Of a DNA stretch of 64,000 nt, positions 4,752 to 47,710 are shown one piece after another (position 1 is the first letter of the stretch; the number at the start of each line of letters is the position of its first letter). A program made the translations under genes and the position numbers. The stretch is from Nemertoderma westbladi. Taxonomy: Eukaryota > Animalia > Xenacoelomorpha. Location of the stretch: positions 62,001 through 126,000 of the forward strand of contig JAUCBJ010009060.1 of the NCBI GenBank assembly GCA_032718475.1. The letters are read 5' to 3'. Below the pieces are notes generated by a model that saw only the letters and a list, made by a program, of their open reading frames with translations, had not been told where the DNA came from and ran no database searches.

Positions 4752-4775
4752 TTATTATAAACTTACGTGACTCTC

Positions 4776-9269: not shown

Positions 9270-9302
9270 TTTAGCTGCGCCATAGGTCACCTACGCTCAG
9301 CT

Positions 9303-9312
9303 AGAAGGGGGG
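9303..9312 (+). promoter_or_regulatory. Polypurine tract
   Basis: AGAAGGGGGG immediately precedes TGTGG. Confidence 0.85.
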
Positions 9313-14824: not shown

Positions 14825-15633
14825 GTAGGAATATGTTTTACTGAACTACGGTTCGGTAGGACTAAAGTTATTTGAAAATTTTGTATTTTGAGGTAAAAAT
14901 TTATATTTGATTAGCTAAGTGCTAATTTTTTGAAATAAAATTTGATTTGAACCGCGTGTAAAATATTTTTGGAATTGAATACCGGTGTTTAAAAGGGTTT
15001 AAATACCATATTGTACCGGTACAAAATTTTCGTAAAAGTAAAACCTAACTCTTTTGTTTTTCAGGATTCAGAACTCATTTCTAGACTGTAACGGGAGCAA
15101 GACCGTGTTTAGCAAGTTTGGGAGATAGATAACTCAACAACTTTGGTTGGGAAAATCGCGCTTCGTCCGCAACGTTAAAAACGGAAAGGTTCACGTTCGG
15201 TTTGTATCTGGGAATCTGTTTTTCTGGAGAATTATTGGAGTGGGTGAGTTCGAAAAGTTGCATAAATAAGTTAGGCATTACCGTATTAGTTAAAATTATT
15301 GTGGGTTCCACTGTCTCAAGTATTTATGCATTCCGTATGATTTCTTTGTTCATTGCTGAATTAGTCCGTATTATTGTATTTAATTTACCTTTTGATAACG
15401 CATATCGTTATCCGATTTATTTGTTATAAAATTGGCCGCTAGGCTAATTTTATTATATACTTATTCCGTGACATTTATTTGCTGTAAAATTGGCCGTTTA
15501 GGCTAATTTTATCCATCTGCTATAAAATCGGCCGGTAGGCTAATTTTATATGACTGTAATTAGTACCGTTTAGATATAAATACGGTAAACTCGATACTTT
15601 GACACTCACTTTACTTGACTTACAACTACCGAA

Positions 15634-24448: not shown

Positions 24449-25109
24449 TTAGGAGTTTACAAATAGATTTCCACGTACCTGTACACCGTAGTAAGGACAG
24501 CGGTAGAATTCCATTGTCTTTATATGTGAACATTGAGGGTAGTACCCTTATGTGTCACATAGGAGCGGGATTTGTAGGTATAAGAAATGGAATTCTACTT
24601 GGAACTCACAATATTGAGACATTTTCGAAATTTTAGACAATCCATTTGGATTTGAAAAATTTTTAAAATTTTCTCCAGTGAATAGATTTCAGGGTACAGT
24701 CGGGTGGAACTTAAAATTAGAGAAACAAGAGAGGAAGACTTGCGAGCCTTTCTTAAAATTTTAATTAAATTTTACACGGTCTTGTTTCAATAAGTTACGT
24801 CAATAAATAGACTCCCCTATATTTATTACTAATTCTTGATTGCTTATTTTCTGATAATAGTTTGGGATCAAAAGGTGAGTATTTTAGACTCACAGCCAGT
24901 TTAGCCCAAATTCGTTTTTATTTCGGCAAAAAATTTTAGATAAGAAGCAGCGTGTCATTAAAGAAACCCTAGATCTTAGGCTATGGGTAGGAGGTTAGAG
25001 CGTTGTCGAGCCCAAAGGGCAGACGAAACTCTCACGTCTCCTCACAACTAACTACAAACTCTGTTGTATTCCCTCTAGTAGTAATGATTATGTAACTACA
25101 CCCCTAATT

Positions 25110-27119: not shown

Positions 27120-27215
27120 AAGGGAGGGCAAGGGTGGACGGAAGACTCGTGAGCCTTTCTTATGATTTGTGATTTATTTGAATTATATTTATATTTAGTA
27201 AGTTTTGTATTCTGG

Positions 27216-27430
27216 AAAACTCATATTTAGTAAAACTTATATTTAGTAAAACTTATATTTAGTAAAACTTATATTTAGTAAGACTTATATTTGTAAAACT
27301 TATATTTAGTAAGACTTATATTTTGTAAGAATTTATATTTTATATTTGTGATTATTCCGAACTTATGCAATTTATATTATTCCGAACTTATGCAATTTAT
27401 ATTGTTCCGAATATTATGCAATTTATATTT
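27216..27430. repeat. 3' UTR minisatellites (16-bp AAAACTTATATTTAGT and 25-bp CCGAACTTATGCAATTTATATTATT)
   Basis: Visible tandem units; copy numbers differ from the equivalent region at 44460-44685. Confidence 0.8.
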
Positions 27431-28117
27431 TATAAGCAGTATTTGTATTTACAGTGAAATAGAAAGTAAGAGTAGATGGAAGACTCGTGGGCCTTTCTTA
27501 TAGTTTCATTTGTAAAGTGTTATATTTTGTATTTAGAAAGTTTTATAGTCAGAAAGTTTTGTGCTTAGAAAGACTCATATTTGTAATTATTCCAAACTTA
27601 TGCAATCTACATTTAGGTACGAAAGTATTTGTAATTACTTGAATTTATGCAATATTTGAGATGCAATAGTAGATGGAAGACTCGCGAGCCTTTCTTATTG
27701 TTTTCATTTATTTGTATTTGTAATTGTTTGAATTTATGCAATATTGAGATGCAATAGATTTATATTGGTGAATTTAATTTAGATTTATATTGTACTTACT
27801 TAGTAAAGCCTTAAATACGTAAAGTTTGAATTTGTAATTATTTTTGTATCGAATCATTACGTAGAAAGGAAGTATTATTTGAAATTTAATTGTAAATATG
27901 TAAGTACGCCCTAAGTATTCTATAGTTTGATTGATTATTGGTGAAAACCGTATATTTTATGCACGATAATATCCTGTTTTCATGGAGCGGTATAGAATTA
28001 TATTCCCTAAATGCCGTGGATTTTCAAAATTTTATTTTATTCGAATTAACTTTGTAAAAGATTGCTTTGAGTCCTCATTTGTATTTGTTATATCTATTGT
28101 ACGCCTATTGGTCAAGT

Positions 28118-28204
28118 GGTTCAGTAGCTCAGTCGGTAGAGCGTTGGAAATTATATGTGTAGTAGGTATTGAGTTCGAATCCTAGTAAGTGCGAATTATT
28201 TTTT
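28118..28204 (+). ncRNA. tRNA-like Pol III cassette in LTR2
   Basis: Identical to 13062-13148. Confidence 0.7.
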
Positions 28205-28261
28205 GTGCAGAATTTCAACTCATTTAAATTAACCGCTACAAATTAATTGCATTTGTCTGTA

Positions 28262-28521
28262 CCAATGAGACTGTAGTTATTTGATTGTAACCAATGTCGT
28301 GCAAGTTATATATTAGCTGGACCAATAGCTATCTTTAAAAACCTGTTAGAACCTATAGAACAATCGAGAATTTTCTCGATTGATTGCAGCACAAATTTGC
28401 TATATAAAGGTGCGATTTGTTCATTAGTTATACCTCTCAGATTATCTTATCTTATCAATATTCTGTCGTGCTTAGTTTATTTCAGATTACATTGTATTAT
28501 AATTATATCTTCTGTAATAAA
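28262..28521 (+). promoter_or_regulatory. LTR Pol II promoter and polyadenylation signal
   Basis: CCAAT at 28262, 28291 and 28322; TATATAAA at 28401; Inr-like TTAGTT about 25 bp later; AATAAA at 28516. Confidence 0.65.
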
Positions 28522-30686
28522 GTCAGAATTATCGCTAATCTGCTTTTCTATCTGTTTTACCATGATTCACTACGGTGAACCCAACCTAAGGGACAGGATG
28601 GCCGGCTAGAGATCGGGCCGCAGCAATGAACGGGAACATCGGGGGAATGTAGACCAGAGACAACCCGCAATACCATCTTGAGTTATTCGCCCATCGCCTG
28701 AAAGGTTAGACAGCGTTCGACGCCTTGCTACCTAAGTGTAAGACCAAAAGATCAAAAGGTAGAAGTAGTGACACGCTGTGAGCCTAAAATTACATCTTAG
28801 GGACTGTACTGTCTTGATTCAGGAAAAACCACAGTAGACCTTCATATTCCTACGGGGGGGAGAGGGAAAGAGCAGGCAGATACTAGTACGCAGATAGGAC
28901 GTAGGCACACCGGTACGAAGCATACAAATTGGTAGGGTGCAGCAAACTGTACGCCTAACTCTTGCTAAGTGCAGGTGTGTGTGCGACTATTTGTAGTACG
29001 ACAGTGTCCATTGCATTAGAACTTGTAGGCTAGGGGGGTTGCTGTGTTTTCACCTGAATTGGGATTGTACCGTTCAGGCGGTAGGGCAGTTTACAGCTAG
29101 GCGCAAATAAATTGAGGCTATTAGGGATACTAACATCTACCGTGTCCCCGCCAACGCCCTAATAGGAAGTTACCCGGACTACCTGGGTGACTAAAATTCT
29201 AGATAGGAGCCAGGATAGCTATTAGTAACTGTACGCCTACAGTAGTAAACTAACACATCTCTTCTTAGTATCAGGGACCTGGTACCTAAAATTGCCGAAT
29301 TCTGGGCGTAGCATTAACCTTATGCCTGAATTTGAGTCCTGGAAATACGCAAGAGGGGAAGGAACCTTATCATTCGTGAGTATTGGACCTACAAGTTACA
29401 AAATTAGAATATTCGTAAAATGCACACCGTACCCAGTAATTATATATGTGAAGGAGCAAAACTGTTTTTGACCGTTCAGAATTAACACACGCGCGTTAGA
29501 AATTATTTACACCTCAAAATATATAAAATTAACTTTCGTCCTTACTGTGCTTTGCCCGCTAGTTAGACATCTCCAAATCTCTGCCTGTACCTAGCTAGCG
29601 TCCCTTCGCCCAACCATATAAATCACACCGCGGCAAAGTATACGAGCCCCTTAGTCCGTCAGTGAGTCAGCCTGATTTTAGGATTCGCTGCGCGGGATTT
29701 TGTTTTATCGAAGTTTGTCTGCTCGTAGACTGTTTTCTGCCTCACCGGTTATAAGAGATCGATACTGCAATATATTCGCTTACTTAGAGTTTACTGTTTT
29801 GGTGAGAAGGTCGGATTTATGATTTGATTCACAAACTTTACAGTAGGATATTGCAGGTATTGTTACTGTCTCTTCGAATAGTAGGAATATGTTTTACTGA
29901 ACTACGGTTCGGTAGGACTAAAGTTATTTGAAAATTTTGTATTTTGAGGTAAAAATTTATATTTGATTAGCTAAGTGCTAATTTTTTGAAATAAAATTTG
30001 ATTTGAACCGCGTGTAAAATATTTTGGAATTGAATACCGGTGTTTAAAAGGGTTTAAATACCATATTGTACCGGTACAAAATTTTCGTAAAGTAAAACCT
30101 AACTCTTTTGTTTTTCAGGATTCAGAACTCATTTCTAGACTGTAACGGGAGCAAGACCGTGTTTAGCAAGTTTGGGAGATAGATAACTCAACAACTTTGG
30201 TTGGGAAAATCGCGCTTCGTCCGCAACGTTAAAAACGGAAAGGTTCACGTCCGGTTTGTATCTGGGAATCTGTTTTTCTGGAGAATTATTGGAGTGGGTG
30301 AGTTCGAAAAGTTGCATAAATAAGTTAGGCATTACCGTATTAGTTAAAATTATTGTGGGTTCCACTGTCTCAAGTATTTATGCATTCCGTATGATTTCTT
30401 TGTTCATTGCTGAATTAGTCCGTATTATTGTATTTAATTTACCTTTTGATAACGCATATCGTTATCCGATTTATTTGTTATAAAATTGGCCGCTAGGCTA
30501 ATTTTATTATATACTTATTCCGTGACATTTATTTGCTGTAAAATTGGCCGTTTAGGCTAATTTTATCCATCTGCTATAAAATCGGCCGGTAGGCTAATTT
30601 TATATGACTGTAATTAGTACCGTTTAGATAAACTACGGTAAGTTTGATACTTTGACACTCACTTTACTTGACTTACAACTACCGAA

Positions 30687-33600
30687 ATGAGTGACAAACA
30701 AGACTATACGAAAAATACACAAACCGACTATGACTCATGCGACGGAGATAAGTCAGCAGCGGAAGAACAACAGGGGAAGACTCGCGAGCCTACCGAACCT
30801 ACACCGTGTGCGTCACCAGTACATCCAACGGGAGTACCGGATGCCGTAGTACGAGGCGACGGCAGGACCGAGGACTTTCTAACTGTTCCGCAACCTAGAT
30901 ACAGGGAAACGGACATGGTAAGTTCAGTAGGAAGCCAGGAGAGCGTGGTTAGAAGCGTCGGTGGATACATGGCGCATATTACCAGGAGTATTGGAGAAGG
31001 CCAACGCATATTAGACGGGTTGACCGCTCCGATGTCTCGATTCGAGTTCTACACCCTCCAGGTTAGAGTACAGAGTAAAGTATATAAGTCCGTAGATAAT
31101 CTAGTTGGCCTACAAGATCTAGCTAGACAGAGACAGGACATGGATACTCAACTTAGAATCCTCGAGAAACTAATGATCGCTAGAGAGAAACTGATTCAGT
31201 TTAAGTCGACGATTAGACAGATACAACAGGAACAAGCGGACCAGTTGTTAGGTGAGTCAGTTTCGGACGAATTATTACAGCCCGAGGAAGAACAGGAACT
31301 GTACCGACTGGATGGACAATTGAAACATCTGACGGACCACTTACGTATGTGCGGCGAGGATGTCGGAGATTGGGAAACCGTGCCGGAATATACGAGGGAA
31401 ACTTCACCCGTACGAATCGAATCGGCACCGGGAATACTGAATCAATCACTGGTGAGTATTCGCAGCGAGATTAACGAGGTAAGCATGGTCACGTCAGAAG
31501 TTGCTCGACAACAGCAACAGTTCTACAGACAGCAACACGAGATGGAAGAACAAACTCAACTGCTAATGATACAAACAGCGGTAGAGGAAGAGAAAATACG
31601 TGTTGCGAATGTAGCGAGAATCTCTCATCTGCAGGAACAAGCCGAACTCGAAGCGGCCGAAATGGAAAGGTTAGAGTTGGACATTGCCCAACAAGCGGCA
31701 GCGGCCGAGTTAGCGCAACGAACGGCAACAGCCGAGTTAGAGCGACAAACGGCAGCGGCAGCGGCAGCGGCCGAGTTAGAGCGACAAACGGAAGCGGCAG
31801 AGTTAGAAAGAAAAAGGTTAGTTTCAGAAGCCAGAGTCGAGATGAAGACACGGCAAATAAAAGCCCAACAAGCGATACGACAAGCAGAGTTCGAGGCGCA
31901 ACAACAACAAACGGAACAACGAGAAAAGGAAGTTAAACTTCGTTTCGAACTTGAGAAAAGGGCGAGAGAATTAGCCGAAACCAAGGAAAATCTGGATCTT
32001 CTAGCCCGTGATCGATCGATGAGATCTCGTGACGGACATGATTTGGACCAGATAGAGGTAAGGCACCGCCAAATCCAGGAACGACTAAAGGAAGGTTCGA
32101 TAGGAGCACCTGGACGGGAACGACAATTAGTAAAGGACTTATGTCAAAGATTCCCTCAAGTAACCCCTATGTTCGCACCAGTTACAACTAAGGAACCTGT
32201 TTCGATTGCGGGTAGTAGTGATATTTCTCCTATCCATGGTGCGACGGAACACAGGTTTGTTATTCCGGACAAGTTTACACCGCCAAGAGCAACGTCGTCG
32301 CCTATTCCGAAAGTCAAGGTAAGTAACCCGCCGATTACGGATCGTAGTAGTTTGTTGACTGGACCTGCACTACTGACGACTAAACAGGTGAGTCCACCGT
32401 CGACACCTAAACCCGTTACACACTACGCTTACCCAATGACGTTTCGACCTACAAGGCCGGTAGATTCAAATGCTGTCATTCGCCCACCGGTTCAGTTTAC
32501 ATCGCAATCTACGACTTCGAGGAAGACTTGTGAGCCTACCGAACAACGGAGACCAGTGGATACGCGACCGTTCAACCAGTTTACATCGCAATCTACGACT
32601 TCGAGGAAGACTTGTGAGCCTACCGAACAACGGAGAACAGTGGATACGCGACCGTTCAATCAGTGTACATCGCAATCTACGACTTCGAGGAAGACTTGTG
32701 AGCCTACCGAACAACGGAGACTAGTGGATACGCGACAGTTCAACCAGCGTGCATCGCAATCTACGACTTCGAGGAAGACTTGTGAGCCTACCGAACAACG
32801 GAGACTAGTGGATACGCGACAGTTCAACCAGTTTACATCGCAATCTACGACTTCGAGGAAGACTTGTGAGCCTACCGAACAACGGAGACTAGTGGATACG
32901 CGACAGTTCAACCAGTTTACATCGCAATCTACGACTTCGAGGAAGACTTGTGAGCCTACTGAACAACGGAGACTAGTGGATACGCGACAGTTCAACCAGC
33001 GTGCATCGCAATCTACGACTTCGAGGAAGACTTGTGAGCCTACCGAACAACGGAGATCAGTGGACGATGTTACGAAACGAAACGTGAGAATTCGTACGAC
33101 GCAACGGACGCGAGCACATCGACCTCCATATCCAGATGATAGTAGTACTTCGAGCGAATCGGATTACCCGAAACGCGAGGTATTTAGAACAGGGGCGGCC
33201 GATGAATATAAACGCGAGCGTTCAGACAACTCCTTTATAGACAATCCTCCACAGAATACACCAACACAGAAGGCGTTACAACCAACGGACGCAATCAGTA
33301 CTCAACAATTCGCCGACATCATGCGACCAGTTGTTAACAAGTTGGCTCAGATCGAGGAGCGTCTGGAGGAAGTTCAAACCGATAGTTCGAGGAACACTGA
33401 ATTCGAACACAATAGACACCCGAAGGAACCACAAAGACCGGTACCTTCAAAACACCCATCGTATCAGGGAAAAGCGCCAAGAAGGGATATCAACCAGATT
33501 ACCAACCAAGGACGCGAAACTCTGAACGTTGCCGAGGAGATAGCGAAATTCGCAGCCAGACAGGGATTGCCGGTGCAACAACCACCGAAGTTTTCTGGTA

Positions 33601-36600
33601 GCTCAAAACACTGGCATACATTCGTAGACTATATCGAATCTCAGATCGCCGTGTGCGCCTTTACATCACGGGAGAAGTTTAATTACCTGCTTCAAACGTT
33701 GTCAGGAGAACCTAAACGTTTGGCAGAGACCTTCGTTGGTGTACCGGACGCCTTCGAACTAGCGTACGATCGTTTAACTTCGATATACGGAGGTACAGTC
33801 AGTATGGCCAGGTCAGTAATAGAGGAACTCTGTAAGGGAGGGGCTATTACTAAACCCGTCGACTTATTAAAACTGGCTGACGAGATAAGGAACGCTATCA
33901 CTACTTTAAGATCCATTGGACAACTTGACTACGGGAATACCCCTACAGTCCTATTAAAGATCATAGGACGACTCCACCATCGACTTCGTCGGGAGTGGAG
34001 AAAGATCGAATACCAGCGAGAAGAGCGGGGTGGATTCTTAAAACTGGAGGATGTGTACCTTTTGATATCCAGGGAGGCAGTAGTAGAAACTCGATCCAAC
34101 TACACTGACCAGCACATCGTGGCAGAAGGAATCACATTGCCATCCTCCAACCGGCAAAAACCCCAGACAACATCCACTAAGACGGCCACTTACACCACAC
34201 CAACGGAATCACGACAATTCTCGGACGGTAGTAGGGTATCTGCGCCCATTGGGATAAAACAGACGAGACAACAACTCAGTACCGACTTCAGCGGCTGCCA
34301 ATACTGCGAGCATCTAGGCAAGCGGTATATCGGTCACAAGTTGAGGGGTTGTCGACAGTTTCGCGAGTTGAACTCGGAAGAACGACGGCTGCAGATACGG
34401 CCACTGGACTCTTGTTGGCGGTGTACGCGACACGGACACGTTCGCAAGGATTGCCCAAATACCGACACTTGTCCATCCTGTGGACGCAACCACGACGGTC
34501 TGCTCCACACAGACAGCCACACGCCGACAAAACGCTTCGCCAGAGAACACCCGGAAGCAGCAGCGAGATGTGATGCGGCCTACAGAAAACGAGAATCGAA
34601 AACGACTCCAACCTTCGTGACCCATATTGAGGATTGCTTCTCAGAACAATCCGGATCGTCGGACGAAGAGTTAGAAGACGACGACGAATATTCCAATGGA
34701 GACGAACAACCGTCGATCGCGCTTCTGACCACTGACCAACTGAAGGGATTCAGTGTAATCCCGATTAAGATTACTGGCACAAAGGGGAGTAAGAGAATTT
34801 ACGCGATCCTTGATTCAGCCTCATCCCACAGCTATGTGGACGAAAAGATAGCTGACGTCGTGACGGATCTCAAACAAGGTAAGCGCGTCAGTTACACCGT
34901 GAGTAGTATGCACGGACAGCGTGCAATACCAGTGACACGAGTCAAGTTAAACTTAGACTCTCTTCTTCCGAAATCGCAACACAGCGAGAGGGAGAGGTCT
35001 TTGTTACCCTTCAAGGATTTGACCTTTGCGGCCACCAAAGACTTTAGTAACTTACTAGGTCCGGTCCCAGAACAATCCTTGGAGGACCGTAAGTATTTCA
35101 GACACCTTGGTGTACCCGAATGTCCTGTCAATTATAGATCGGTAGCCATGCTGATCGGGACAGACCAATTCAACCTACACCAAGTGTGGGAAACCAGACC
35201 ATCGGCAGTTGTAGCGGGAAACGCATACGCCTGCAGAACGCCGATAGGGTGGTATACTCGAGCGCCTGTGCGCACACTAAACGTAAGTGACGAGGAAGAC
35301 GATGTACAAAGTACATGTAGTTTACTAACTACAAATTCAATCCATTCCTTTTCACACGATGTGGACCATACTACACTACAGTCGACAAAACATGACAGAC
35401 GTGTAACTAGTATGATAAGTAGTCACAAGGAGCAGCTAATCCACAAGGTGAGTTTAGAACTTGGGGAGAAGACGAGTCAGCTAGAGATTCCATCGACGAC
35501 AGATGATAGGCTTGCGAGTCTACCTACCCCAACAACCTCAACAATACCCATCGATATCGATGATGACGTGTTGAGAAATCATCAAGTGGAACAAGCTGCA
35601 CTGGACAAAGAATTAACGGAGAAGACTATCAGGTGGTTAGAACAAGATACAGCTGAACCTGGTAGCTACGAACCTTGTATGTCGGAACAGGAGAAACAAG
35701 CTCTGAAGATCATGGAAGATACTATCCGCCAGACGAAAGACGGACATTATGAGGTGGGGATGTTATGGCGTAGCCAAAGTCCTAAACTTATAAACAACTA
35801 CCCACTGGCTTTAAGACGTCTACACTCAATACGGCAACGTCTATTAAAGGACGAGAAAGCCCATCTGCAGTACAACACTCAGATGGAGACGTATTTGACT
35901 AAGGGATATGCTATCCGAATGACTAACCCAGAGATAGTGACTAACCAGACATACTACCTGCCACATCACTATGTGAGACATCCCGACAAACCAGATAAAG
36001 TACGTGTAGTCAATGATTGTGCGGCTCTATTTGAGGGAATGTCCCTCAATAGTGAGTTGATGGATGGACCAAACATGAATAATTATCTTATGGGGGTGAT
36101 TATGCGCTTCCGTCAGCGTCAAGTAGCCTTTACTTGCGACGTTGAAGCGATGTTTCACCAAGTGAAAGCGTTAGAGCGAGACAGAGACAGTTTGCGGTTC
36201 CTCTGGTATCCGGAAGGAGACTTAAGTCTACCACCAGCGACTTACCAAATGCAAGTTCGCGTTTTCGGTGCCAGAGACAGCCCAAACTGCACGATGTACG
36301 CCCTAAAACAAGCCGCTAGAGATCAGAAACACCTATATGACCCAGAGATAATTAGGATTGTGGAGCGTGACTTTTACGTTGACGACGGTTTACAGAGTTG
36401 CGACACAGTAGAACGTGCTACAACAGTAGCACATCAATTACGGGACTGCTTAGCGGGCGGAGGTTTTAACCTCACCAAATTCGCCTCAAACAGTGCCGAA
36501 TTAGTAGACTCATTCGGAACGACTGAGCGTGGAGGTGGTGACATAGACCTAGAGTTCGAACCACTACCGACGACCAAGGTGTTGGGGCTCTTTTGGGACC

Positions 36601-39600
36601 CAAACACGGACAACTTCCGAGTGAAGGTGAGACTGGACAGTCAAGAGAACACACTGACAAAGAGATCATGCTTGTCAAAATTGAGCCGATTGTTCGATCC
36701 GTTAGGATTCATCAGTCCAGTGATACTGCAAGCCCGCATTTATATGCGCAGTATTTGGAAGGTTGGACTAACATGGGACGAGCCGATCTCATCAGACCAA
36801 GTGGACTTATGGAAGACCTGGGAGGCGGAATTATCTTCGCTAGAGGATTATTCCATACCCAGAGTTTACTTTCCATTACAAACTACATTTCCTGACAACT
36901 TGGAATTACATTGTTTTTCTGACGCCAGTGACAACGGTTTTGGTGTGGCAGCGTACTTGCGCAGACAAGTAGACTCAGAAGCATTCGATGTTTCGCTCAT
37001 TACTTCTAAGGCAAAAACAATGCCTACTAAGTATATGACGACACCACGAGCTGAGCTACAAGCCGCAACCCTGTCAACCACCATCGTGAACCTTATACAG
37101 ACAGAATTACAGTCAAGTTTACAGATATTTTATTGGACTGACGCGACGTTGGTTTTATTTTACATAAACAACGACACACTTGAATTCAAGACATTCGTAG
37201 CTAACCGTCGCGCAGAAATTCTAGACCGTTCAATAAAAGAGGATTGGCGACATTGTCCCGGACCACAAAACCCAGCTGATATTGCGTCGCGAGGAATGAT
37301 GCCCGAGGAATTCTGTAAACCGGAAAACAAAGAATTTTGGCAACACGGACCCCAATTCTTGCAGAAATCGACACAAGATTGGCCTCCGTTATACGACAAC
37401 AAATCTAATACTATCCCTAAGGACGCCGAAATCAAGAAACCAAAAAAGGGGAAGGCAAAGAAAAAGACGACGGCGACAAAACTCAAGAAAAAACCGAAGG
37501 CGAAATGGAAAGATATAACTTCAAAGGTCAAGAGAGGAAGACTTGCGAGCCTTTCTACACCAGACATATCGCCAGACGGTCAACCAGACACGTTACTAGA
37601 CGATCAACCAGACGTTTTGCCAGACATATCACAAAATGTTCTACCAGACACTAGTGACATACTGACAAACAGTAAAGCCGCAGTTTCCCTATTGGAGCGG
37701 CCTTCTATTGACAAACAACCAGATGCGTTACCAGACGTATCACCAGACACATTACTAGACGGTCAACCAGACGTTTTGCCAGACATATCACAAAATGTTC
37801 TACCAGACACTAGTGACATACTGACAAACAGTAAAGCCGCAGTTTCCCTATTGGAGCGGCCTTCTATTGACAAACAACCAGATGCGTTACCAGACGTATC
37901 GCCAGACACGTTACTAGACGGTCAACCAGACGTTTTGCCAGACACGTCACTAGATAATTCGCCGGATGTTCCGCGAAACATTTTACCAGACATGTCACAA
38001 AATGTTCTACCGGACATTAGTAATGTATCGACTAACAGTAAAGCCGCAGTTTCCCTATTGGAGCGGCCTTGTATTGACAAACTACCAATTTTGACACACT
38101 TGAGCAACCATAAGCATGGTGAAACCTCATGTATTACAGATGTGGGTAGTACCTACGCTAATGTAAATACAGGTGTTACTTTGCGCTCAAGAGACATACC
38201 GAACTTGCAACCTATGGTGAGACCTGGGATTAATGTCGGCAGAAAAATAAGTTTACCGAAACCTGCTGACCCCATAGAGTTCAAACCACCATTAACGATC
38301 GACTTACAAAGTACCGACAATCAAGGTAAGAAGACGAAGAAGGACAAATTACTTGTAGACCCGGACGGATCAACAGTCAACAAGGGAATACTTACCGGCG
38401 GACCCGTGGGCCCTTCTAGTAATTCAAAACCTTCCAAAATCTCCATTGACTTACCTGATGACGTCACAAATACTCACATCGACCGGATTGTAAACTTAAC
38501 AGACTCTTGGACAAACGCTTGCCGAAAATTAGCGTGGATTGTACGTTTCGTACAATACGTTAAAGGCAAACGTGACTTTACACGTCGACTTACATTGGCT
38601 GAGATTGACAGGTGTGAGATTAAATTAATTCGCCATTACCAACTGCGATATTTCGCGCGCGAATTCACATCTATAAATCAAGGTCAACCAATCAAGTCGT
38701 CACCAATACTGAGTTGGAGTCCGATTATTTATAATGGCTTAATTTGTCATAAATCACGGCTTCAAAACATTGACTTTAACACAAACTTTAGATACCCAAT
38801 AATAATACCCCAACATCACAAACTACAACGTGCAATGATACTGGACGCACATTTACATCTGAAACATGCTGGAAGACACCACTGTCTTTCTTACTTACGT
38901 ACAAGATTTGTATTGATTAGACCTAGTAAAGCGTTAAGTTCAGTGACACGTACGTGTATTATTTGTAAAAAGGTACATTCTAGAATAGGTACCCAAGAAA
39001 TGAGTGAACTACCACAAGCACGACTTCAAGCATTCAGACCACCTTTTACAGAGACTGGAATTGATTGCTTTGGTCCCATACATACGAAACGTGGACGTAT
39101 ACTAGTAAAACGCTGGGGACTGATTTTCACATGTATGTCCAGTAGGGCAGTTCATATTGAACGTGTGATGGATCTTTCCACCAACGCGTTTATACTAGCA
39201 CTGCGGCGATTTATCGCTAGACGCGGACTAGTAAAATGCTTGTACTCAGACCAAGGGACAAACTTTGTTGGTGCTCGGAATGAGATTGCTAGAGCTTTTA
39301 AGAAATTAGATCATGATCAAATCTCGAACGAACTACAACCTCACAAGATTGTTTGGAAGTTTAATCCTCCAGATAGTCCTTGGAGAGGCGGAGTCTGGGA
39401 GAGACTGATTAGATCTATAAAGACAGCCATGGCAAAGGTCATTCCAGTAAACCACATATTGACAGACGACCAACTGACAACACTGTTTGTTGAAATCGAG
39501 GCAATACTAAATACTAGACCAATAGTATTAGTACCCGATGACAAACAATCTCAGTTTGCTTTGACACCGGCACACCTGCTTATGCAGGCACCGACCACAT

Positions 39601-39986
39601 TGACACCTATTTCTATTCCAATAGAAAGCGACAGCTACGGTAGAAAAGCGTGGAAAATCACGCAACTACTGGCTAACAAATTCTGGGAAATATGGCAAAA
39701 CCATTATTTGCCCTCTATTTCTGCCAGAACAACTTGGTATAATAACACCCGCGCATTAAAGCCGGGAGATCACGTGCTGTTAGCGGAAGTGAATCTAAAA
39801 AGACGCTTCTGGATAACAGGTGTAATTTTAGCCACACATCCATCTATGGATGGAGTGACAAGAACTGTGACGGTACGGACAATTGACGGTCGTACAGTAG
39901 ACAGACCGACTCAACGTCTCGTACTTCTTGAAGAGACTCATAACGAGTCTGGAGACTACAAATCTCCACCTAATACTAGTAAATAA
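30687..39986 (+). CDS. Intact BEL/Pao Gag-Pol polyprotein, 3099 aa
   Basis: Coiled-coil N-terminus; DUF1759-like capsid; BEL triple Cys/His (CQYC..H..C, CWRC....H....C, CPSC...H...LH); protease LDSAS; RT YLPHH, DVEAMF, FGARDSP, YVDD; RNase H FSDAS, PRAEL, WTD, NPADIASRG; integrase HHCC, DCFGP, SDQGTNF, GGVWE. Confidence 0.96.
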   Translation: MSDKQDYTKNTQTDYDSCDGDKSAAEEQQGKTREPTEPTPCASPVHPTGVPDAVVRGDGRTEDFLTVPQPRYRETDMVSSVGSQESVVRSVGGYMAHITRSIGEGQRILDGLTAPMSRFEFYTLQVRVQSKVYKSVDNLVGLQDLARQRQDMDTQLRILEKLMIAREKLIQFKSTIRQIQQEQADQLLGESVSDELLQPEEEQELYRLDGQLKHLTDHLRMCGEDVGDWETVPEYTRETSPVRIESAPGILNQSLVSIRSEINEVSMVTSEVARQQQQFYRQQHEMEEQTQLLMIQTAVEEEKIRVANVARISHLQEQAELEAAEMERLELDIAQQAAAAELAQRTATAELERQTAAAAAAAELERQTEAAELERKRLVSEARVEMKTRQIKAQQAIRQAEFEAQQQQTEQREKEVKLRFELEKRARELAETKENLDLLARDRSMRSRDGHDLDQIEVRHRQIQERLKEGSIGAPGRERQLVKDLCQRFPQVTPMFAPVTTKEPVSIAGSSDISPIHGATEHRFVIPDKFTPPRATSSPIPKVKVSNPPITDRSSLLTGPALLTTKQVSPPSTPKPVTHYAYPMTFRPTRPVDSNAVIRPPVQFTSQSTTSRKTCEPTEQRRPVDTRPFNQFTSQSTTSRKTCEPTEQRRTVDTRPFNQCTSQSTTSRKTCEPTEQRRLVDTRQFNQRASQSTTSRKTCEPTEQRRLVDTRQFNQFTSQSTTSRKTCEPTEQRRLVDTRQFNQFTSQSTTSRKTCEPTEQRRLVDTRQFNQRASQSTTSRKTCEPTEQRRSVDDVTKRNVRIRTTQRTRAHRPPYPDDSSTSSESDYPKREVFRTGAADEYKRERSDNSFIDNPPQNTPTQKALQPTDAISTQQFADIMRPVVNKLAQIEERLEEVQTDSSRNTEFEHNRHPKEPQRPVPSKHPSYQGKAPRRDINQITNQGRETLNVAEEIAKFAARQGLPVQQPPKFSGSSKHWHTFVDYIESQIAVCAFTSREKFNYLLQTLSGEPKRLAETFVGVPDAFELAYDRLTSIYGGTVSMARSVIEELCKGGAITKPVDLLKLADEIRNAITTLRSIGQLDYGNTPTVLLKIIGRLHHRLRREWRKIEYQREERGGFLKLEDVYLLISREAVVETRSNYTDQHIVAEGITLPSSNRQKPQTTSTKTATYTTPTESRQFSDGSRVSAPIGIKQTRQQLSTDFSGCQYCEHLGKRYIGHKLRGCRQFRELNSEERRLQIRPLDSCWRCTRHGHVRKDCPNTDTCPSCGRNHDGLLHTDSHTPTKRFAREHPEAAARCDAAYRKRESKTTPTFVTHIEDCFSEQSGSSDEELEDDDEYSNGDEQPSIALLTTDQLKGFSVIPIKITGTKGSKRIYAILDSASSHSYVDEKIADVVTDLKQGKRVSYTVSSMHGQRAIPVTRVKLNLDSLLPKSQHSERERSLLPFKDLTFAATKDFSNLLGPVPEQSLEDRKYFRHLGVPECPVNYRSVAMLIGTDQFNLHQVWETRPSAVVAGNAYACRTPIGWYTRAPVRTLNVSDEEDDVQSTCSLLTTNSIHSFSHDVDHTTLQSTKHDRRVTSMISSHKEQLIHKVSLELGEKTSQLEIPSTTDDRLASLPTPTTSTIPIDIDDDVLRNHQVEQAALDKELTEKTIRWLEQDTAEPGSYEPCMSEQEKQALKIMEDTIRQTKDGHYEVGMLWRSQSPKLINNYPLALRRLHSIRQRLLKDEKAHLQYNTQMETYLTKGYAIRMTNPEIVTNQTYYLPHHYVRHPDKPDKVRVVNDCAALFEGMSLNSELMDGPNMNNYLMGVIMRFRQRQVAFTCDVEAMFHQVKALERDRDSLRFLWYPEGDLSLPPATYQMQVRVFGARDSPNCTMYALKQAARDQKHLYDPEIIRIVERDFYVDDGLQSCDTVERATTVAHQLRDCLAGGGFNLTKFASNSAELVDSFGTTERGGGDIDLEFEPLPTTKVLGLFWDPNTDNFRVKVRLDSQENTLTKRSCLSKLSRLFDPLGFISPVILQARIYMRSIWKVGLTWDEPISSDQVDLWKTWEAELSSLEDYSIPRVYFPLQTTFPDNLELHCFSDASDNGFGVAAYLRRQVDSEAFDVSLITSKAKTMPTKYMTTPRAELQAATLSTTIVNLIQTELQSSLQIFYWTDATLVLFYINNDTLEFKTFVANRRAEILDRSIKEDWRHCPGPQNPADIASRGMMPEEFCKPENKEFWQHGPQFLQKSTQDWPPLYDNKSNTIPKDAEIKKPKKGKAKKKTTATKLKKKPKAKWKDITSKVKRGRLASLSTPDISPDGQPDTLLDDQPDVLPDISQNVLPDTSDILTNSKAAVSLLERPSIDKQPDALPDVSPDTLLDGQPDVLPDISQNVLPDTSDILTNSKAAVSLLERPSIDKQPDALPDVSPDTLLDGQPDVLPDTSLDNSPDVPRNILPDMSQNVLPDISNVSTNSKAAVSLLERPCIDKLPILTHLSNHKHGETSCITDVGSTYANVNTGVTLRSRDIPNLQPMVRPGINVGRKISLPKPADPIEFKPPLTIDLQSTDNQGKKTKKDKLLVDPDGSTVNKGILTGGPVGPSSNSKPSKISIDLPDDVTNTHIDRIVNLTDSWTNACRKLAWIVRFVQYVKGKRDFTRRLTLAEIDRCEIKLIRHYQLRYFAREFTSINQGQPIKSSPILSWSPIIYNGLICHKSRLQNIDFNTNFRYPIIIPQHHKLQRAMILDAHLHLKHAGRHHCLSYLRTRFVLIRPSKALSSVTRTCIICKKVHSRIGTQEMSELPQARLQAFRPPFTETGIDCFGPIHTKRGRILVKRWGLIFTCMSSRAVHIERVMDLSTNAFILALRRFIARRGLVKCLYSDQGTNFVGARNEIARAFKKLDHDQISNELQPHKIVWKFNPPDSPWRGGVWERLIRSIKTAMAKVIPVNHILTDDQLTTLFVEIEAILNTRPIVLVPDDKQSQFALTPAHLLMQAPTTLTPISIPIESDSYGRKAWKITQLLANKFWEIWQNHYLPSISARTTWYNNTRALKPGDHVLLAEVNLKRRFWITGVILATHPSMDGVTRTVTVRTIDGRTVDRPTQRLVLLEETHNESGDYKSPPNTSK
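32493..33066 (+). repeat. 84-bp (28-aa) in-frame repeat in gag, 7 copies (3 in copy 1 at ~17440-17675)
   Basis: QFTSQSTTSRKTCEPTEQRRLVDTRQFN units. Confidence 0.95.
37560..38085 (+). repeat. Pro-Asp-rich repeats with a 159-bp duplication between RNase H and integrase
   Basis: QPDVLPDISQNVLPDTSDILTNSKAAVSLLERPSIDK... at 37604 and 37763; copy 1 has one fewer unit. Confidence 0.85.
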
Positions 39987-40647
39987 TTAGGAGTTCACAA
40001 ATAGATTTCCACGTACCTGTACACCGTAGTAAGGACAGCGGTAGAATTCCATTGTCTTTATATGTGAACATTGAGGGTAGTACCCTTATGTGTCACATAG
40101 GAGCGGGATTTGTAGGTATAAGAAATGGAATTCTACTTGGAACTCACAATATTGAGACATTTTCGAAATTTTAGACAATCCATTTGGATTTGAAAAATTT
40201 TTAAATTTTCTCCAGTGAATAGATTTCAGGGTACAGTCGGGTGGAACTTAAAATTAGAGAAACAAGAGAGGAAGACTTGCGAGCCTTTCTTAAAAATTTT
40301 AATTAAATTTTACACGGTCTTGTTTCAATAAGTTACGTCAAAAAATAGACTCCCCTGTATTTATTTCTAATTCTTGATTGCTTATTTTCTGATAATAGTT
40401 TGGGATCAAAAAGTGAGTATTTTAGACTCACAGCCAGTTTAGCCCAAATTCGTTTTTATTTCGGCAAAAAATTTTAGATAAGAAGCAGCGTGTCATTAAA
40501 GAAACCCTAGATCTTAGGCTATGGGTAGGAGGTTAGAGCGTTGTCGAGCCCAAAGGGCAGACGAAACTCTCACGTCTCCTCACAACTAACTACAAACTCT
40601 GTTGTATTCCCTCTAGTAGTAATGATTATGTAACTACACCCCTAATT

Positions 40648-43600
40648 ATGGAGAAAGGGATACAAGGAGAGCCGAGATGGGGATATGATATCCAAGAGGA
40701 GGCAGCAGCGCCATTCGAAAGATTTGGAGCCAAGGATTATACTATATTCGGTATAAAAGAATTATCGGAAAGTACAGCGAAACTCGCGAGAACTAAATAT
40801 GACTCAAATGTATTAAAGAGAAGGCAAAACGCATTAAACGAAAGAATCGAAAGTTTGCGCCAAACCTTCAACGAACTTTACCCGTACGACACTTTATGTG
40901 ATACGGGAGATATTTGCGAAGACCCCGACACTGAAATTAGTCGTTTGTATCATACCATGCAATACCTGAAGGCGCACGAACCTATGCCCGCGGTAAGAGA
41001 TGAATTCGATGGAATGCATCTTTACAGACGAACTCGAGGGGACGATAGAGAAACCAAGGAAGCATTTTCAGTTTATAAACTTTATTATCAATGCGGTTCT
41101 TGTATGCGCGAACAACGAAATGCGATTCCAATGCGTTTGAATAAGGAAAATCCCGAACCGATATTGGCGAGGTGTTCGAACCATCAACAACTACGCTACC
41201 AGGAAGGAGGGTATCCTTTATCGAATCCATATCATTCATTTGCTATGACCGGACCAAAGGCGGGAGAAACTGTCATTTACCCACCTAAGGTTGTTGAACC
41301 CGATGTATTTGAACTTACGCTGGACGAGGCAAATCAGTCAACCCGCGAAAAGAAAGAAGCTCTTAGCCTATACAGAGCCTACAAGGCTTTCGAGAAAGGT
41401 GAGATGGAAGAATGGGGTGGAAGACTCGCGAGCCTACCTTGCCATTGGACGTCACACGATCAAACTCCAGCTAAGGAGATGACACCGGAAGTTTTCGAGA
41501 GCATAAACTTTGCTCAAAACGTTATTCAGAGACTACAGATTGCATCCCCGGAGAGGACAAGAGAAATGCAACCGTATAGTACTTCAACTACGAAACCATT
41601 GAGTACGACACTCAACTTTCCTATTAGTATACCAGTCCGACAGGATACGACGTACGAAATACCCATCGTGGATCATCCAGAAATCATTTCAAACTTGGAG
41701 TTTCTTCCTGCAGTTGTTTTCAGTGATATGAGTAAGATATATGATTTACGTAGACATATTACTCAAAAGGTCGTGTACAACGTTCCACCTCATATTCAAG
41801 ACTTCAAGGAACTGGATAGAGCTGGTGCCGATATAGCTCCGAGTAATTTGAAGGGATATTTAACCAAGACGATTCGTTTATGGATTGGAACCGGAACCTT
41901 CGAGTCGGATACAGATATTGCCGCGGATTGGCGAGGTAAGGTTATTAGCTTCGAAGATGATAAGGATATAGAGAAGATTTGGCAACCTTCGGAAGAATTG
42001 TTGGACGAATGGAATAGAACGTTTAGATCGTTTCAGGAAAATGGTTACATGTTTTACGATAACGAGGGCGGCAGTCATCAGCAGAGTTTGACTTCTAAGA
42101 CTATACAGATTAGAGCGGCGGACGGAGTCTTGCACGTTTTCAGTAGACAGAGGAGCGACAAACGAATGCCGATACCTCCAGCGAATACAAAGCGACACCA
42201 TCTTATCACCGACATAGTAAAGAAGATGGACCAAGCTTGTAATATTGACGCTAGAATGTTACCGAAGATGGTAAGAAACATGATTTTAGATAAAACTGTT
42301 GTAAAGATTGGATCAGGAGTAAGGGAGGACTTAATTAGCGACTTCGCCGGCATGACGGACAGCGATGACCGACTACCGACACCTTACGTCGACACTCGAC
42401 CTCTTATTTTGTGGTCTATAGAACAGGGATATTTTCGTGAGTATAATACTCAGAAGACTGGAACTGGATACATTTCCTACCTGTTATTCAATTGGGATTA
42501 TAAGGAAAATAAGAGAAACAAGTATATTGAAACTTATGGAGAAGGTGATACTCCAGATATGAGTGAGTTTGAATCACAGCTTAAATGGAGAGGATGCGTG
42601 TATTGGGCTATTACGTCACCTCCAAGAGCGGTCTTACAATATTATTTAGCAATAGAGTCGTCAGTGAATGTTTGCCTAATCGCCGACATTGTGTCTCGGA
42701 CTCTCAAAAGACATCCACTTTGTCTCGGAGAAGATCATACTTTCTACATGGAAGGGAGAATTCGTACCGACGTGTTTAGACAATTCCTTGAACCCTTCTA
42801 CAACTCCGACGCTCAGTGTAATGCCTTTACTCGAGCAGGATTTAGTATATTTCGAGACGTGTATCTTCGCTGTGCGGGATCTCTTATCGAAAGACCATCT
42901 ATGTTTACATTGTTACCCTATGAAGGAGAACGTATCGTGGAGATTACGGAAGAATCACGGCAGACGCGCGCGCCTATCGGTCACCTTGGTGATGATTTCG
43001 AAGTAACTACTACGATCGCTGACGATCCTTTAGAGGAACTTCTTGAGATAGAAAGGAACCTCCCGAAGAAATCTCAGATGGAGATTCGACAACTTGAAGC
43101 AACAGATGCTATAGTTTGTATACAACCTTCAGATACCTACCAACCCATAGACCCAGATGATTACGATTATAGTATGGGAGGAAGCACTCGACCGATTGGA
43201 GATCTTATATACGAACGAGTGTGGTACCCTGCCAATACGATGTGTAGTAAATGTGGCGTCGCTGGACATCATATGACAAAGTGCAGTGGAAAGCACATTA
43301 CTACGACTCAGCTAATCTGTGGATGGTGTGGGGATCAAGGGTCTCATACCTTTTATACTTGCTGGAGATTTATGGCTCAATGTACTTATTGCAATATAAA
43401 AGGACATCGAGCATCTGAATGCCAACTAAGAGACATACCTTATGAACACGAATCTGTAAAACTCGTGAGGAAGTTATTTGATGAGTGGGAAGATTTAGCC
43501 GACGAACATGTATCGGCACAAAGAAGACGGTTTCCGATGAGAGCGCATCTCGGATTTTGGGCGGTAAATCCTCAAACGATGATGTCGGAAGGATATATCT

Positions 43601-44373
43601 CCGCTATGCCCCAATATGACGAACTTATCGAGGTAGTCGATATTTTGCCCCACGACAGCGGATTCCGAGTAGTGCGCGAGTATCTACTACAGATTCACCC
43701 GGATAACAAAAACACGTGGAATTTTCAGAAAGTCGTTAATCGCATTACGTATGGTGAATTCGATCGTTTCCGAACTGAAAGGCGGAATAAAGGAGCTTGG
43801 TTAACCGTTGCATGGGCGTACCGAGCCGCGTTTTACCATAAACGTATACGAGCGAGCGTATTCGAGGAAGAAGAGGTCCTAGAGGCGACAAATATACCAG
43901 CCACTCCGGTTGCGCCGTCTGCACGTCACCCTCGGGAGGACGGACAGGGTAGGATCATACGGGTCCAGAAAGTGGGCCAACAATTAAAGAAAATTATTAA
44001 TATAGAAGAACGCAAGGGAGTTGAGCCGACCATTCGAGTTACTCGGGATACGGTATCGCTTCCTAGAGAACCAGTAGGAGGATCGGGACATACACCAGCT
44101 GATCAACAGGGGGCGCAAGCTACTCTTGGGTCTGCGTCGTCCGCTTCTCGCGCGTTCCCAGACGTTCTACCAACTGTAGTGACAACTGATCGGTCACGAG
44201 GAATCGGTCGAGGTTTTGGGATGCCAAATAGACGAATTTGCGAGGAAATAGTCGCACCGTCTCTCAACGTCCAAACGAAACCAGTGACTCGCCCCACGAG
44301 TCCCATATCGCGAGCAAAGTCACCTGTGCGCAGTTTTCGAGGACGCGGCAGGGCTCGATCCACTAAGCGATAA
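40648..44373 (+). CDS. Accessory ORF2, 1241 aa: putative Zn ribbon, DEDDy 3'-5' exonuclease-like domain, three CCHC-type zinc knuckles and a basic disordered tail
   Basis: ExoI FYDNEG (D471, E473) followed by TIQI..LHVF; ExoII LPKMVRNMILDKTVVKIGSGVRED (D561); YVDT; ExoIII-like YW...QYYLAIE (Y666, E670). Knuckles CSKCGVAGHHMTKC, CGWCGDQGSHTFYTC and CTYCNIKGHRASEC at 43243-43422. Confidence 0.85.
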   Translation: MEKGIQGEPRWGYDIQEEAAAPFERFGAKDYTIFGIKELSESTAKLARTKYDSNVLKRRQNALNERIESLRQTFNELYPYDTLCDTGDICEDPDTEISRLYHTMQYLKAHEPMPAVRDEFDGMHLYRRTRGDDRETKEAFSVYKLYYQCGSCMREQRNAIPMRLNKENPEPILARCSNHQQLRYQEGGYPLSNPYHSFAMTGPKAGETVIYPPKVVEPDVFELTLDEANQSTREKKEALSLYRAYKAFEKGEMEEWGGRLASLPCHWTSHDQTPAKEMTPEVFESINFAQNVIQRLQIASPERTREMQPYSTSTTKPLSTTLNFPISIPVRQDTTYEIPIVDHPEIISNLEFLPAVVFSDMSKIYDLRRHITQKVVYNVPPHIQDFKELDRAGADIAPSNLKGYLTKTIRLWIGTGTFESDTDIAADWRGKVISFEDDKDIEKIWQPSEELLDEWNRTFRSFQENGYMFYDNEGGSHQQSLTSKTIQIRAADGVLHVFSRQRSDKRMPIPPANTKRHHLITDIVKKMDQACNIDARMLPKMVRNMILDKTVVKIGSGVREDLISDFAGMTDSDDRLPTPYVDTRPLILWSIEQGYFREYNTQKTGTGYISYLLFNWDYKENKRNKYIETYGEGDTPDMSEFESQLKWRGCVYWAITSPPRAVLQYYLAIESSVNVCLIADIVSRTLKRHPLCLGEDHTFYMEGRIRTDVFRQFLEPFYNSDAQCNAFTRAGFSIFRDVYLRCAGSLIERPSMFTLLPYEGERIVEITEESRQTRAPIGHLGDDFEVTTTIADDPLEELLEIERNLPKKSQMEIRQLEATDAIVCIQPSDTYQPIDPDDYDYSMGGSTRPIGDLIYERVWYPANTMCSKCGVAGHHMTKCSGKHITTTQLICGWCGDQGSHTFYTCWRFMAQCTYCNIKGHRASECQLRDIPYEHESVKLVRKLFDEWEDLADEHVSAQRRRFPMRAHLGFWAVNPQTMMSEGYISAMPQYDELIEVVDILPHDSGFRVVREYLLQIHPDNKNTWNFQKVVNRITYGEFDRFRTERRNKGAWLTVAWAYRAAFYHKRIRASVFEEEEVLEATNIPATPVAPSARHPREDGQGRIIRVQKVGQQLKKIINIEERKGVEPTIRVTRDTVSLPREPVGGSGHTPADQQGAQATLGSASSASRAFPDVLPTVVTTDRSRGIGRGFGMPNRRICEEIVAPSLNVQTKPVTRPTSPISRAKSPVRSFRGRGRARSTKR

Positions 44374-45244: not shown

Positions 45245-47141
45245 TATAGAATTATATTCTCTAAATGCCGTGGATTTTCAAAATTTTATTTTATTCGAAT
45301 TAACTTTGTAAAAGATTGCTTTGAATCCTCATTTGTATTTGTTATATCGCCTATCGGTCAAGTGGTTCAGTAGCTCAGTCGGTAGAGCGTTGGAAATTAT
45401 ATGTGTAGTAGGTATTGAGTTCGAATCCTAGTAAGTGCGAATTATTTTTTGTGCAGAATTTCAACTCATTTAAATTAACCGCTACAAATTAATTGCATTT
45501 GTCTGTACCAATGAGACTGTAGTTATTTGATTGTAACCAATGTCGTGCAAGTTATATATTAGCTGGACCAATAGCTATCTTTAAAACCTTGTTAGAACCT
45601 ATAGATCAATCGAGAATTTTCTCGATTGATTGCAGCACAAATTTGGTATAAAAGGGTGCGATTTGTTCATTAGTTATCTTTCTCATCTATGCTTCTCAGA
45701 TTATCTTATCTTATCAATATTCTGTCGTGCTTAGTTTATTTCAGATTACATTGTATTATAATTATATTTTCTGTAATAAAGTCAGAATTATCGCTAATCT
45801 GCTTTTCTATCTGTTTTACCATGGATTCACTACGGTGAACAAACCTAAGGGACAGGATGACCGGCTAGAGATCGGGCCGCAGCAATGAACGGGAACATCG
45901 GGGGAATGTAGACCAGAGACAACCCGCAATACCATCTTGAGTTATTCGCCCATCGCCTGAAAGGTTAGACAGCGTTCGATCCTTGCTACCTAAGTGTAAG
46001 ACCAAAAGATCAAAAGGTAGAAGTAGTGACACGCTGTGAGCCTAAAATTACATCTTAGAGACTGTACTGTCTTGATTCAGGAAAAACCGCAGTAGACCTT
46101 CATATTCCTACGGGGGGGAGAGGGAAAGAGCGCAGGCAGATACTAGTACGCAGATAGGACGTAGGCACACCGGTACAAGGCATACACATTGGTTAGGGTG
46201 CAGCAAACTGTACGCCTAACTCTTGCTAAGTGCAGGTGTGTGTGCGACTATTTGTAGTACGACAGTGTCCATTGCATTATAACTTGTAGGCTAGGGGGGT
46301 TGCTGTGTTTTCACCTGAATTGGGATTGTACCGTTCAGGCGGTAGGGCAGTTTACAGCTAGGCGCAAATAAATTGAGGCTATTAGGGATACTAACATCTA
46401 CCGTGTCCCCGCCAACGCCCTAATAGGAAGTTACCCGGACTACCTGGGTGACTAAAATTCTAGATAAGAGCCAGGATAGCTATTAGTAACTGTACGCCTA
46501 CAGTAGTAAACTAACACATCTCTTCTTAGTATCAGGGACCTGGTACCTAAAATTGCCGAATTCTGGGCGTAGCATTAACCTTATGCCTGAATTTGAGTCC
46601 TGGAAATACGCAAGAGGGGAAGGAACCTTATCATTCGTGAGTATTGGACCTACAAGTTACAAAATTAGAATATTCGTAAAATGCACACCGTACCCAGTAA
46701 TTATATATGTGAAGGAGCAAAACTGTTTTTGACCGTTCAGAATTAACACACGCGCGTTAGAAATTATTTACACCTCAAAATATATAAAATTAACTTTCGT
46801 CCTTACTGTGCTTTGCCCGCTAGTTAGACATCTCCAAATCTCTGCCTGTACCTAGCTAGCGTCCCTTCGCCCAACCATATAAATCACACCGCGGCAAAGT
46901 ATACGAGCCCTTTAGTCCGTCAGTGAGTCAGCCTGATTTTAGGATTCGCTGCGCGGGATTTTGTTTTATCGAAGTTTGTCTGCTCGTAGACTGTTTTCTG
47001 CCTCACCGGTTATAAGAGATCGATACTGCAATATATTCGCTTACTTAGAGTTTACTGTTTTGGTGAGAAGGTCGGATTTATGATTTGATTCACAAACTTT
47101 ACAGTAGGATATTGCAGGTATTGTTACTGTCTCTTCGAATA
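45245..47141 (+). repeat. BEL LTR-containing direct repeat 3
   Basis: Homology ends at CTCTTCGAATA (47141); no TSD matches the left flank. Confidence 0.85.
45364..45450 (+). ncRNA. tRNA-like Pol III cassette in LTR3
   Basis: Identical to the other two copies. Confidence 0.7.
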
Positions 47142-47432: not shown

Positions 47433-47710
47433 CCATTTCTGAACGAAACCATAATATTACATCATGCTGATAAAAAACCGTATAGGGTATGTATCTTTTG
47501 CTGCAATAAAATTCCAAAATTTTATAAATATAATAATAATAATAATATAAAAAATAGTATAAAATATAATACCGATTCCGTCTTTGATAAATTGTTGATG
47601 TTAATTGCTTTCAATTATTAAAATGCAATAACAATTATTTTATAATATACTAGGCGAGTAACGAATTACATAATATTATGTATTTTAATTTATTGTCATC
47701 CTACATTATC

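Follow-up and report, generated by a model that had tools for sequence, protein, structure and literature searches.

A BEL/Pao retrotransposon of Nemertoderma westbladi carries an accessory gene with a predicted DEDDy exonuclease-type domain and zinc knuckles

Introduction

The closest described counterparts of the gene reported here are found in bdelloid rotifers, where Juno and Vesta, retrotransposons with long terminal repeats (LTRs), and the Terminons carry a third open reading frame (ORF3) of the DEDDy exonuclease type (PMC5408684; statements on cited papers refer throughout to the part of each text that was available). In the Juno and Vesta ORF3s the motif reads DEED, and no function has been demonstrated for them (PMC5408684; PMC6431247; PMC5718144). 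Here we describe ORF2, an accessory gene of a BEL/Pao LTR retrotransposon, in a stretch of 64,000 nucleotides from the xenacoelomorph Nemertoderma westbladi (contig JAUCBJ010009060.1 of assembly GCA_032718475.1, positions 62,001 to 126,000 of the forward strand; hereafter the window, in whose own numbering all positions are given). An initial annotation of the window had proposed that ORF2 joins a DEDDy exonuclease to zinc knuckles, and had pointed to captured DEDDy ORFs in Gypsy-like elements of bdelloid rotifers, a parallel that PMC5408684 bears out.

Like the Juno and Vesta ORF3s, ORF2 is RNase D-like and of the DEDDy type, stands in the env position as a separate ORF, has no membrane segment and shows one possible Asp-to-Glu change. 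The change in the rotifer proteins gives DEED, whereas that in ORF2 would fall at the fourth position. The rotifer elements are Gypsy-like with TG..CA LTRs of 159-551 base pairs (bp), whereas the present element belongs to BEL/Pao and has 1.9-kb TAT..ATA LTRs. Compared by description and not by sequence, ORF2 further differs from the rotifer proteins in being a multidomain chain of 1241 amino acids (aa) with three knuckles.

Within BEL/Pao itself, Frame, Cutfield and Poulter are said to have described, in Gene in 2001, an exonuclease/zinc-finger gene 3' of integrase in BEL elements of Caenorhabditis elegans. If so, those BEL-like Cer elements share superfamily, position and both kinds of domain with ours, differing in BEL lineage and host, and ORF2 is therefore not the first such gene in BEL/Pao; the novelty of its architecture for the superfamily is doubtful. 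A DEDDy domain and a zinc knuckle also meet in Trypanosoma brucei RNase D, which has a mitochondrial guide-RNA role. Like ORF2, this enzyme combines the DEDDy domain with a CCHC knuckle in one chain (PDB 7c42, 7c45), but it is a cellular protein of about 350 aa, and the likeness is treated here as an analogy. In Cer19, gag-pol and env are accompanied by a further ORF, a separate ORF2 for which no function is named (PMC7084138). We found no exonuclease ORF of BEL/Pao in the open literature, supplements aside, which does not establish its absence from print; the available text of PMC3118150, PMC2774666 and PMC11662393 contains nothing on exonuclease cargo.

Results

ORF2 belongs to the second of two element copies in a tandem array of the form LTR-internal-LTR-internal-LTR (12935-47141; all features of the array lie on the + strand). 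It occupies 40648..44373, starts 661 bp after the end of the gag-pol ORF and is stop-free over its 1241 aa, as the initial annotation had described. Direct LTRs flank both gag-pol and ORF2. The maximal hydropathy over 19 residues is 1.38, under that of a typical transmembrane helix, and the N-terminus is polar, in agreement with the earlier reading that signal peptide and transmembrane stretch are absent. ORF2 thus has neither the signal peptide nor the transmembrane anchor of an env fusion glycoprotein and, because it lacks a membrane segment, is not env. Three CCHC zinc knuckles (aa 866-925, 43243..43422) follow the exonuclease region, recognized by their pattern and by PF00098 at E=0.0019, below the curated cut-off, and a putative CxxC-x23-CxxH zinc site (aa 149-179, 41092..41184; pattern only, no family match) precedes it, both where the annotation had placed them. 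The C-terminus is a basic RGRGR tail. A candidate splice donor just 5' of the gag ATG (30635..30643) and a candidate acceptor with pyrimidine tract 32 bases 5' of the ORF2 ATG (40598..40616), both consensus matches only, suggest that ORF2 may be made from a spliced, env-like subgenomic mRNA (donor at about 30638, acceptor at 40616).

The central part of ORF2, aa ~425-680 (41920..42687), contains a DEDDy exonuclease-like domain of the WRN/EXD2/RNase D type, as judged from profile, alignment and ESM features, with an insertion of about 33 aa before the ExoII motif. General family searches gave little: no Pfam exonuclease family matched ORF2, PF01612, to which the initial annotation had looked, gave no match at E up to 10, a PDB sequence search with ORF2 was empty, and NCBIfam DnaQ covered ExoI at E=0.025 only. 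No homologue was found by a 5.8-billion word search (aa 400-950; lengths 682-2172 only), nor in viral or metagenome contigs, phages, plasmids or PDB sequences.

Methods aimed at the family were more informative. In ESM Atlas features for aa 400-760, 24 of 30 matches fell in PF01612 clusters, with scores up to 0.92 (a score of 0.9 is attained by shuffled proteins in 4-10 of 100 cases) and 167 shared features, slightly fewer than the 170 that genuine members of the family typically share. A custom profile from 17 bacterial EXD2/WRN-type exonucleases scored aa 538-562, the ExoII block, at P=7e-4, a value reached by 1 of 2000 shuffles and by 0 of 120 control BEL polyproteins. Alignment by hhalign gave E=0.0024 at a probability of only 12%, the ordered exonuclease blocks reached z=5.7 and 6.9, mostly through ExoII, and pairwise BLAST with Escherichia coli RNase D returned the same register without significance.

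In a 22-row alignment, ORF2 keeps all five invariant columns, namely D471 (42058) and E473 (42064) of ExoI, Q487, K553, and D561 (42328) of ExoII, at 15-24% identity of the domain to PF01612-branch exonucleases and with large insertions. D561 was placed in all 58 MAFFT runs; the ExoI DxE register (D471/E473) was recovered in 8 of 8 runs with a set of 20 sequences and in 0 of 8 with a set of 15. The DEDDy motifs quoted in the initial annotation are located at aa 469, 485, 495, 538, 555, 580 and 664. The reported replacement of the last Asp by Glu (E670) holds in a by-eye register only, that of the candidate ExoIII Y666/E670 (42643/42655), which is uncertain.

A structural model that used borrowed exonuclease rows, cut before ExoIII, has a predicted local distance difference test score (pLDDT) of 79-84 in its core. 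Nearly all of its top fold matches are DEDD proteins (best Z 9.2, root-mean-square deviation 3.9, 163 aligned), a result that is partly circular because exonuclease rows were fed to the model, and to which we give little weight; the sole fold support independent of these rows is that of the ESM Atlas features. The top matches, EXD2, WRN exonuclease, Nibbler/Mut-7, NrnC, EXD1 and Egalitarian, all of the PF01612 branch, have the same core motifs as ORF2, and because they are tied no donor subfamily can be named. We regard the DEDDy assignment as beyond chance; several methods converge on one family and one ExoII register. Taken together, the ESM features, profile, hhalign and alignment support the fold family and architecture first proposed, and ORF2 very probably has a divergent DEDDy fold of the WRN/EXD2/RNase D type. 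Because D471, E473 and D561 survive at such low overall identity, we also lean towards a catalytically active domain, though with less assurance.

The two copies allow selection on ORF2 to be assessed. The copy 1 remnant (25110-27119) is frameshifted near aa 115 and is without aa ~184-754, a deletion that takes the whole nuclease domain. Over 601 codons of the shared parts there are 19 synonymous and 11 non-synonymous differences, giving a ratio of non-synonymous to synonymous rates (dN/dS) of 0.17-0.24 (p at most 1.3e-4; two copies) for the parts of ORF2 outside the nuclease domain. ORF2 is therefore under purifying selection by the comparison of copies that the initial annotation had suggested. 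Two further deletion joints with other breakpoints, seen in contigs, skip the nuclease region (40787>42820 and 40803>42932). The nuclease domain has thus been deleted at least three times independently, and the nuclease part is dispensable in cis. Sequence of a sister family, about 83% identical, runs through the domain and shows 0 gaps over 337 bases and 2 over 732. Because ORF2 is shared with the sister family, selected, and yet repeatedly lost in cis, its action in trans is suggested.

The element is a BEL/Pao LTR retrotransposon of the marine-invertebrate type. Copy 1 comprises a 5' LTR (12935-14824) and an internal region, together 12935..27990, and its gag-pol is disrupted by frame changes. 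Copy 2 (27991-47141) measures 19,151 bp and has two ORFs. The middle LTR (27991..29880, 1890 bp) is common to both copies, as the 3' LTR of copy 1 and the 5' LTR of copy 2, and the 3' LTR of copy 2 (45245..47141) has a short purine-rich stretch resembling a polypurine tract directly 5' of it. The three LTRs, each of about 1.9 kb, differ pairwise by 23-46 mismatches and have TAT...ATA termini, not TG..CA. No target-site duplication surrounds the array, whose flanks differ; the same 3' LTR base is the element's exit point in other contigs too. In copy 2, gag-pol is a single ORF of 3099 aa (30687..39986) with hallmark families of BEL/Pao: it matches Peptidase_A17, DUF1759 and DUF5641, and retains DSA, YVDD, DAS and integrase motifs, so that protease, reverse transcriptase (RT), RNase H and integrase are all represented. 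Its RT-RNase H region is 38-44% identical, at most 44%, to the matches listed, of which those named come from marine invertebrates (cnidarians, molluscs, echinoderms and one tunicate). Published BEL/Pao elements are usually 4.2-10 kb long with LTRs of 0.2-1.2 kb (PMC3118150), and the present one is therefore large. The family was seen in sequencing runs from four studies.

Coding tandem repeats enlarge gag-pol. Those in gag have 84-bp units (32492-33064), those lying between RNase H and integrase have longer ones (37572-38087), and the number of units is not equal in copies 1 and 2. The LTR contains tRNA-like A and B boxes with a T run behind them (28108-28205, and likewise in its other copies), upstream of CCAAT boxes and a TATA box; candidate poly(A) signals lie at 28516 and 29106. 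The A and B boxes recall the Helenus terminal-repeat retrotransposons in miniature (PMC10886601), whereas the element here is of the autonomous type. One contig from sequencing run X4 has 97 differences in 701 bases (29036-29737), those listed being A>G. The same run has a loose end at 29819 that resembles a template-switch oligo. X4 may be cDNA with ADAR-edited LTR RNA, although it is listed as DNA. An X4 contig covers 40707-42593 without gaps.

Neither copy has a TGG-type transfer RNA (tRNA) primer site after its LTR. At the primer-binding-site position, 11 bases that are not of tRNA type (29881..29891) begin at the first base past the LTR and form a perfect complement, of correct polarity, to 28843..28853 within the LTR. 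The latter is a candidate self-primer, at the core of a three-helix duplex that it is predicted to form with the LTR end and the leader. An LTR match of 11 bases was held by 18 of 20000 LTR shuffles and by 10 of 15354 internal 11-mers, and the best LTR-leader duplex is predicted at -33 kcal/mol, the next site reaching -22. A tRNA-like stretch of the LTR was rejected as primer, since neither ARAGORN nor Rfam called one and the complement of the primer site occurs only at 28843 and 46101. Three runs have loose ends at 29869-29889, which point to copies where a short stretch, the LTR end plus primer site, is duplicated in tandem.

With a primer site complementary to its own LTR and no tRNA site, the element likely primes its own reverse transcription. 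It resembles in this the self-primed Ty3/gypsy elements Tf1 and Tj1 (PMC4600332) and differs from them in belonging to BEL/Pao, several relatives within which form the complement only across a predicted splice junction. We found no description of self-priming in BEL/Pao in the open literature, supplements aside, which does not establish its absence from print; the available text of PMC554778, PMC3601003, PMC8220671 and PMC11599104 has nothing on the subject.

Metagenome contigs provided 526 BEL loci, of which the best 80 served for comparison. Sixty of them include the integrase end, 19 an LTR pair and 11 a usable LTR end, eight LTR-pair loci having been dropped as unreadable (the LTR ends of L001 and L059 are approximate). 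In all 11 LTR-readable relatives, less than 500 bp separates integrase from the 3' LTR, so that they have no nuclease gene. ORF2 had no match among the 80 loci (best E=0.45), and no exonuclease family was found in the 8 same-strand ORFs among 14 ORFs located downstream. A 926-aa ORF downstream of the L004 integrase was rejected as cargo, being a second gag.

The same relatives bear on priming. A TGG-type site follows the LTR in 0 of 11, and in 8 of 11 the element's own LTR contains a complement of 10-15 bases (two contiguous, six spanning a canonical intron, of which three belong to one family); a contiguous-duplex test alone finds LTR pairing in 2 of 11. In the six intron-spanning loci (L040:972-1420, L050:2079-2800, L035:1851-2270, L041, L049 and L069), the bases after the 5' LTR find their LTR match only when a canonical GTAAG..YAG junction is spanned, over 10-15 bases, as 0-3 of 100 shuffles do; L035, L041 and L049 are identical in sequence, which leaves four distinct cases. 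Such matches fit a self-primer built by splicing. Because these relatives appear to self-prime and have no nuclease, self-priming looks like a lineage trait that does not need the nuclease.

Elsewhere in the window, a Ty3/gypsy element (4547-9598) with identical LTRs of 194 bp contains a 1497-aa ORF and a primer site of the TGG type; it is preceded by an endonuclease fragment (3096-3818) and followed by a BEL gag fragment (9672-10205). A 22-bp satellite of about 12 kb (47700-59400) is stop-free on the + strand and gives rise to artefactual ORFs of more than 2500 aa. Inverted arrays of a 21-bp unit (61207-62333) resemble the subterminal repeats of a foldback element or of one like a miniature inverted-repeat transposable element.

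Discussion

We tentatively favor the reading that ORF2 is a selected accessory gene of BEL/Pao whose product, a 3'-5' exoribonuclease with zinc knuckles, acts in trans against host RNA surveillance and not in primer-making. The exoribonuclease would be of the WRN/EXD2/RNase D type, and the zinc knuckles joined to it would bind RNA. Speculatively, the knuckles and basic tail would hold single-stranded RNA on the element's ribonucleoprotein, and the nuclease would trim the 3' ends of silencing guides or host-added tails. Because the element has no tRNA site and likely primes itself, ORF2 is more likely directed at host RNA defences than at the primer, and it is plausible that it counters small-RNA silencing.

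Several observations weigh against this reading. A phmmer search with aa 1-850 against 1.84 billion representatives gave 0 matches. MAFFT puts the ExoIII helix at aa 641-655 (V651), with no acidic residue, in 58 of 58 runs, and the by-eye alternative reads W653..Y666..E670; Asp is present in neither register. A single-sequence AlphaFold model reached pLDDT 31.5 and no usable fold, and the model with borrowed rows, besides its circularity, falls to about 40 at ExoIII. The dN/dS estimate, as said, speaks for parts outside the domain, which copy 1 has lost. The rotifer ORF3s, moreover, show no clear link to copy number in the available text of PMC5408684.

A serious, if doubtful, alternative is that the domain is catalytically impaired and that ORF2 is an RNA-binding adaptor for the export, transport or packaging of the unusually long genomic RNA, like Egalitarian or EXD1. 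Both proteins are among the modeled fold matches, tied with active enzymes, the fourth acidic position is Glu or absent, and the knuckles and basic tail suit RNA binding. However, the three acids and two further invariant positions have been kept despite extreme divergence, and the rotifer ORFs with a D-to-E change are still read as possibly active (PMC5408684).

It is unlikely that the ORF2 nuclease matures the self-primer or another replication intermediate, such that RNA containing 28843-28853, once annealed behind the LTR, would lose its 3' overhang up to the duplex and so gain the 3'-OH. The position and polarity of the 11-bp complement would permit this. The candidate primer lies 853 bases into the 1890-bp LTR, and the clearest TATA box (28401) is 440 bases upstream of it. 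In Tf1, by contrast, the primer is the RNA 5' end (PMC4600332), and extra processing could therefore be needed here. Yet 8 of 11 relatives share the trait without room for a nuclease gene, Tf1 is reported, in a title cited by PMC4600332, to cut with its own RNase H, and the sequence 3' of the primer is predicted to lie in a duplex and to offer no free overhang. A common variant at 28845, a region for which contig variants come from 40 of 80 rows, breaks one primer pair and is carried uncompensated by copy 1. The predicted pairing probability is 0.0 for a transcript starting at 28430, though 0.7-1.0 for starts from 28700 onward. We hold it quite improbable, specifically, that a captured nuclease finishes the element's own primer, deep in an expanded LTR, by trimming it to the exact 3' end at which reverse transcription starts; if true, this would be a retroelement encoding both its own primer and a dedicated primer-processing enzyme.

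It is very unlikely that ORF2 falls outside the DEDD proteins, or that it is a captured sequence of neutral character. The missing Pfam, PDB-sequence and database matches, the low hhalign probability and the Atlas scores of shuffled proteins would fit such a view, but several methods agree on one family and one ExoII register, and a synonymous excess accompanies a 3.7-kb open frame. Trimming of a host tRNA primer, the primer maturation raised in the initial annotation, is extremely improbable: although RNase D-type enzymes trim tRNA 3' ends (PMC5408684), the element is without a tRNA-type primer site, its post-LTR bases pair with its own LTR, and TGG-type sites are missing from both copies and all 11 relatives, whereas the neighboring Gypsy element has one.

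DEDD nucleases recur as non-envelope cargo of LTR elements, with no demonstrated function in the literature we found, and ORF2 extends this pattern to an apparently high-copy BEL/Pao family of the marine-invertebrate type. Comparison is possible with natural derivatives that have lost the nuclease and with relatives that have none, and the element lends itself to a clean test of tRNA-independent priming in BEL/Pao. Should ORF2 act on small RNAs or RNA tails, it would be a suppressor of RNA surveillance that an animal transposon encodes.

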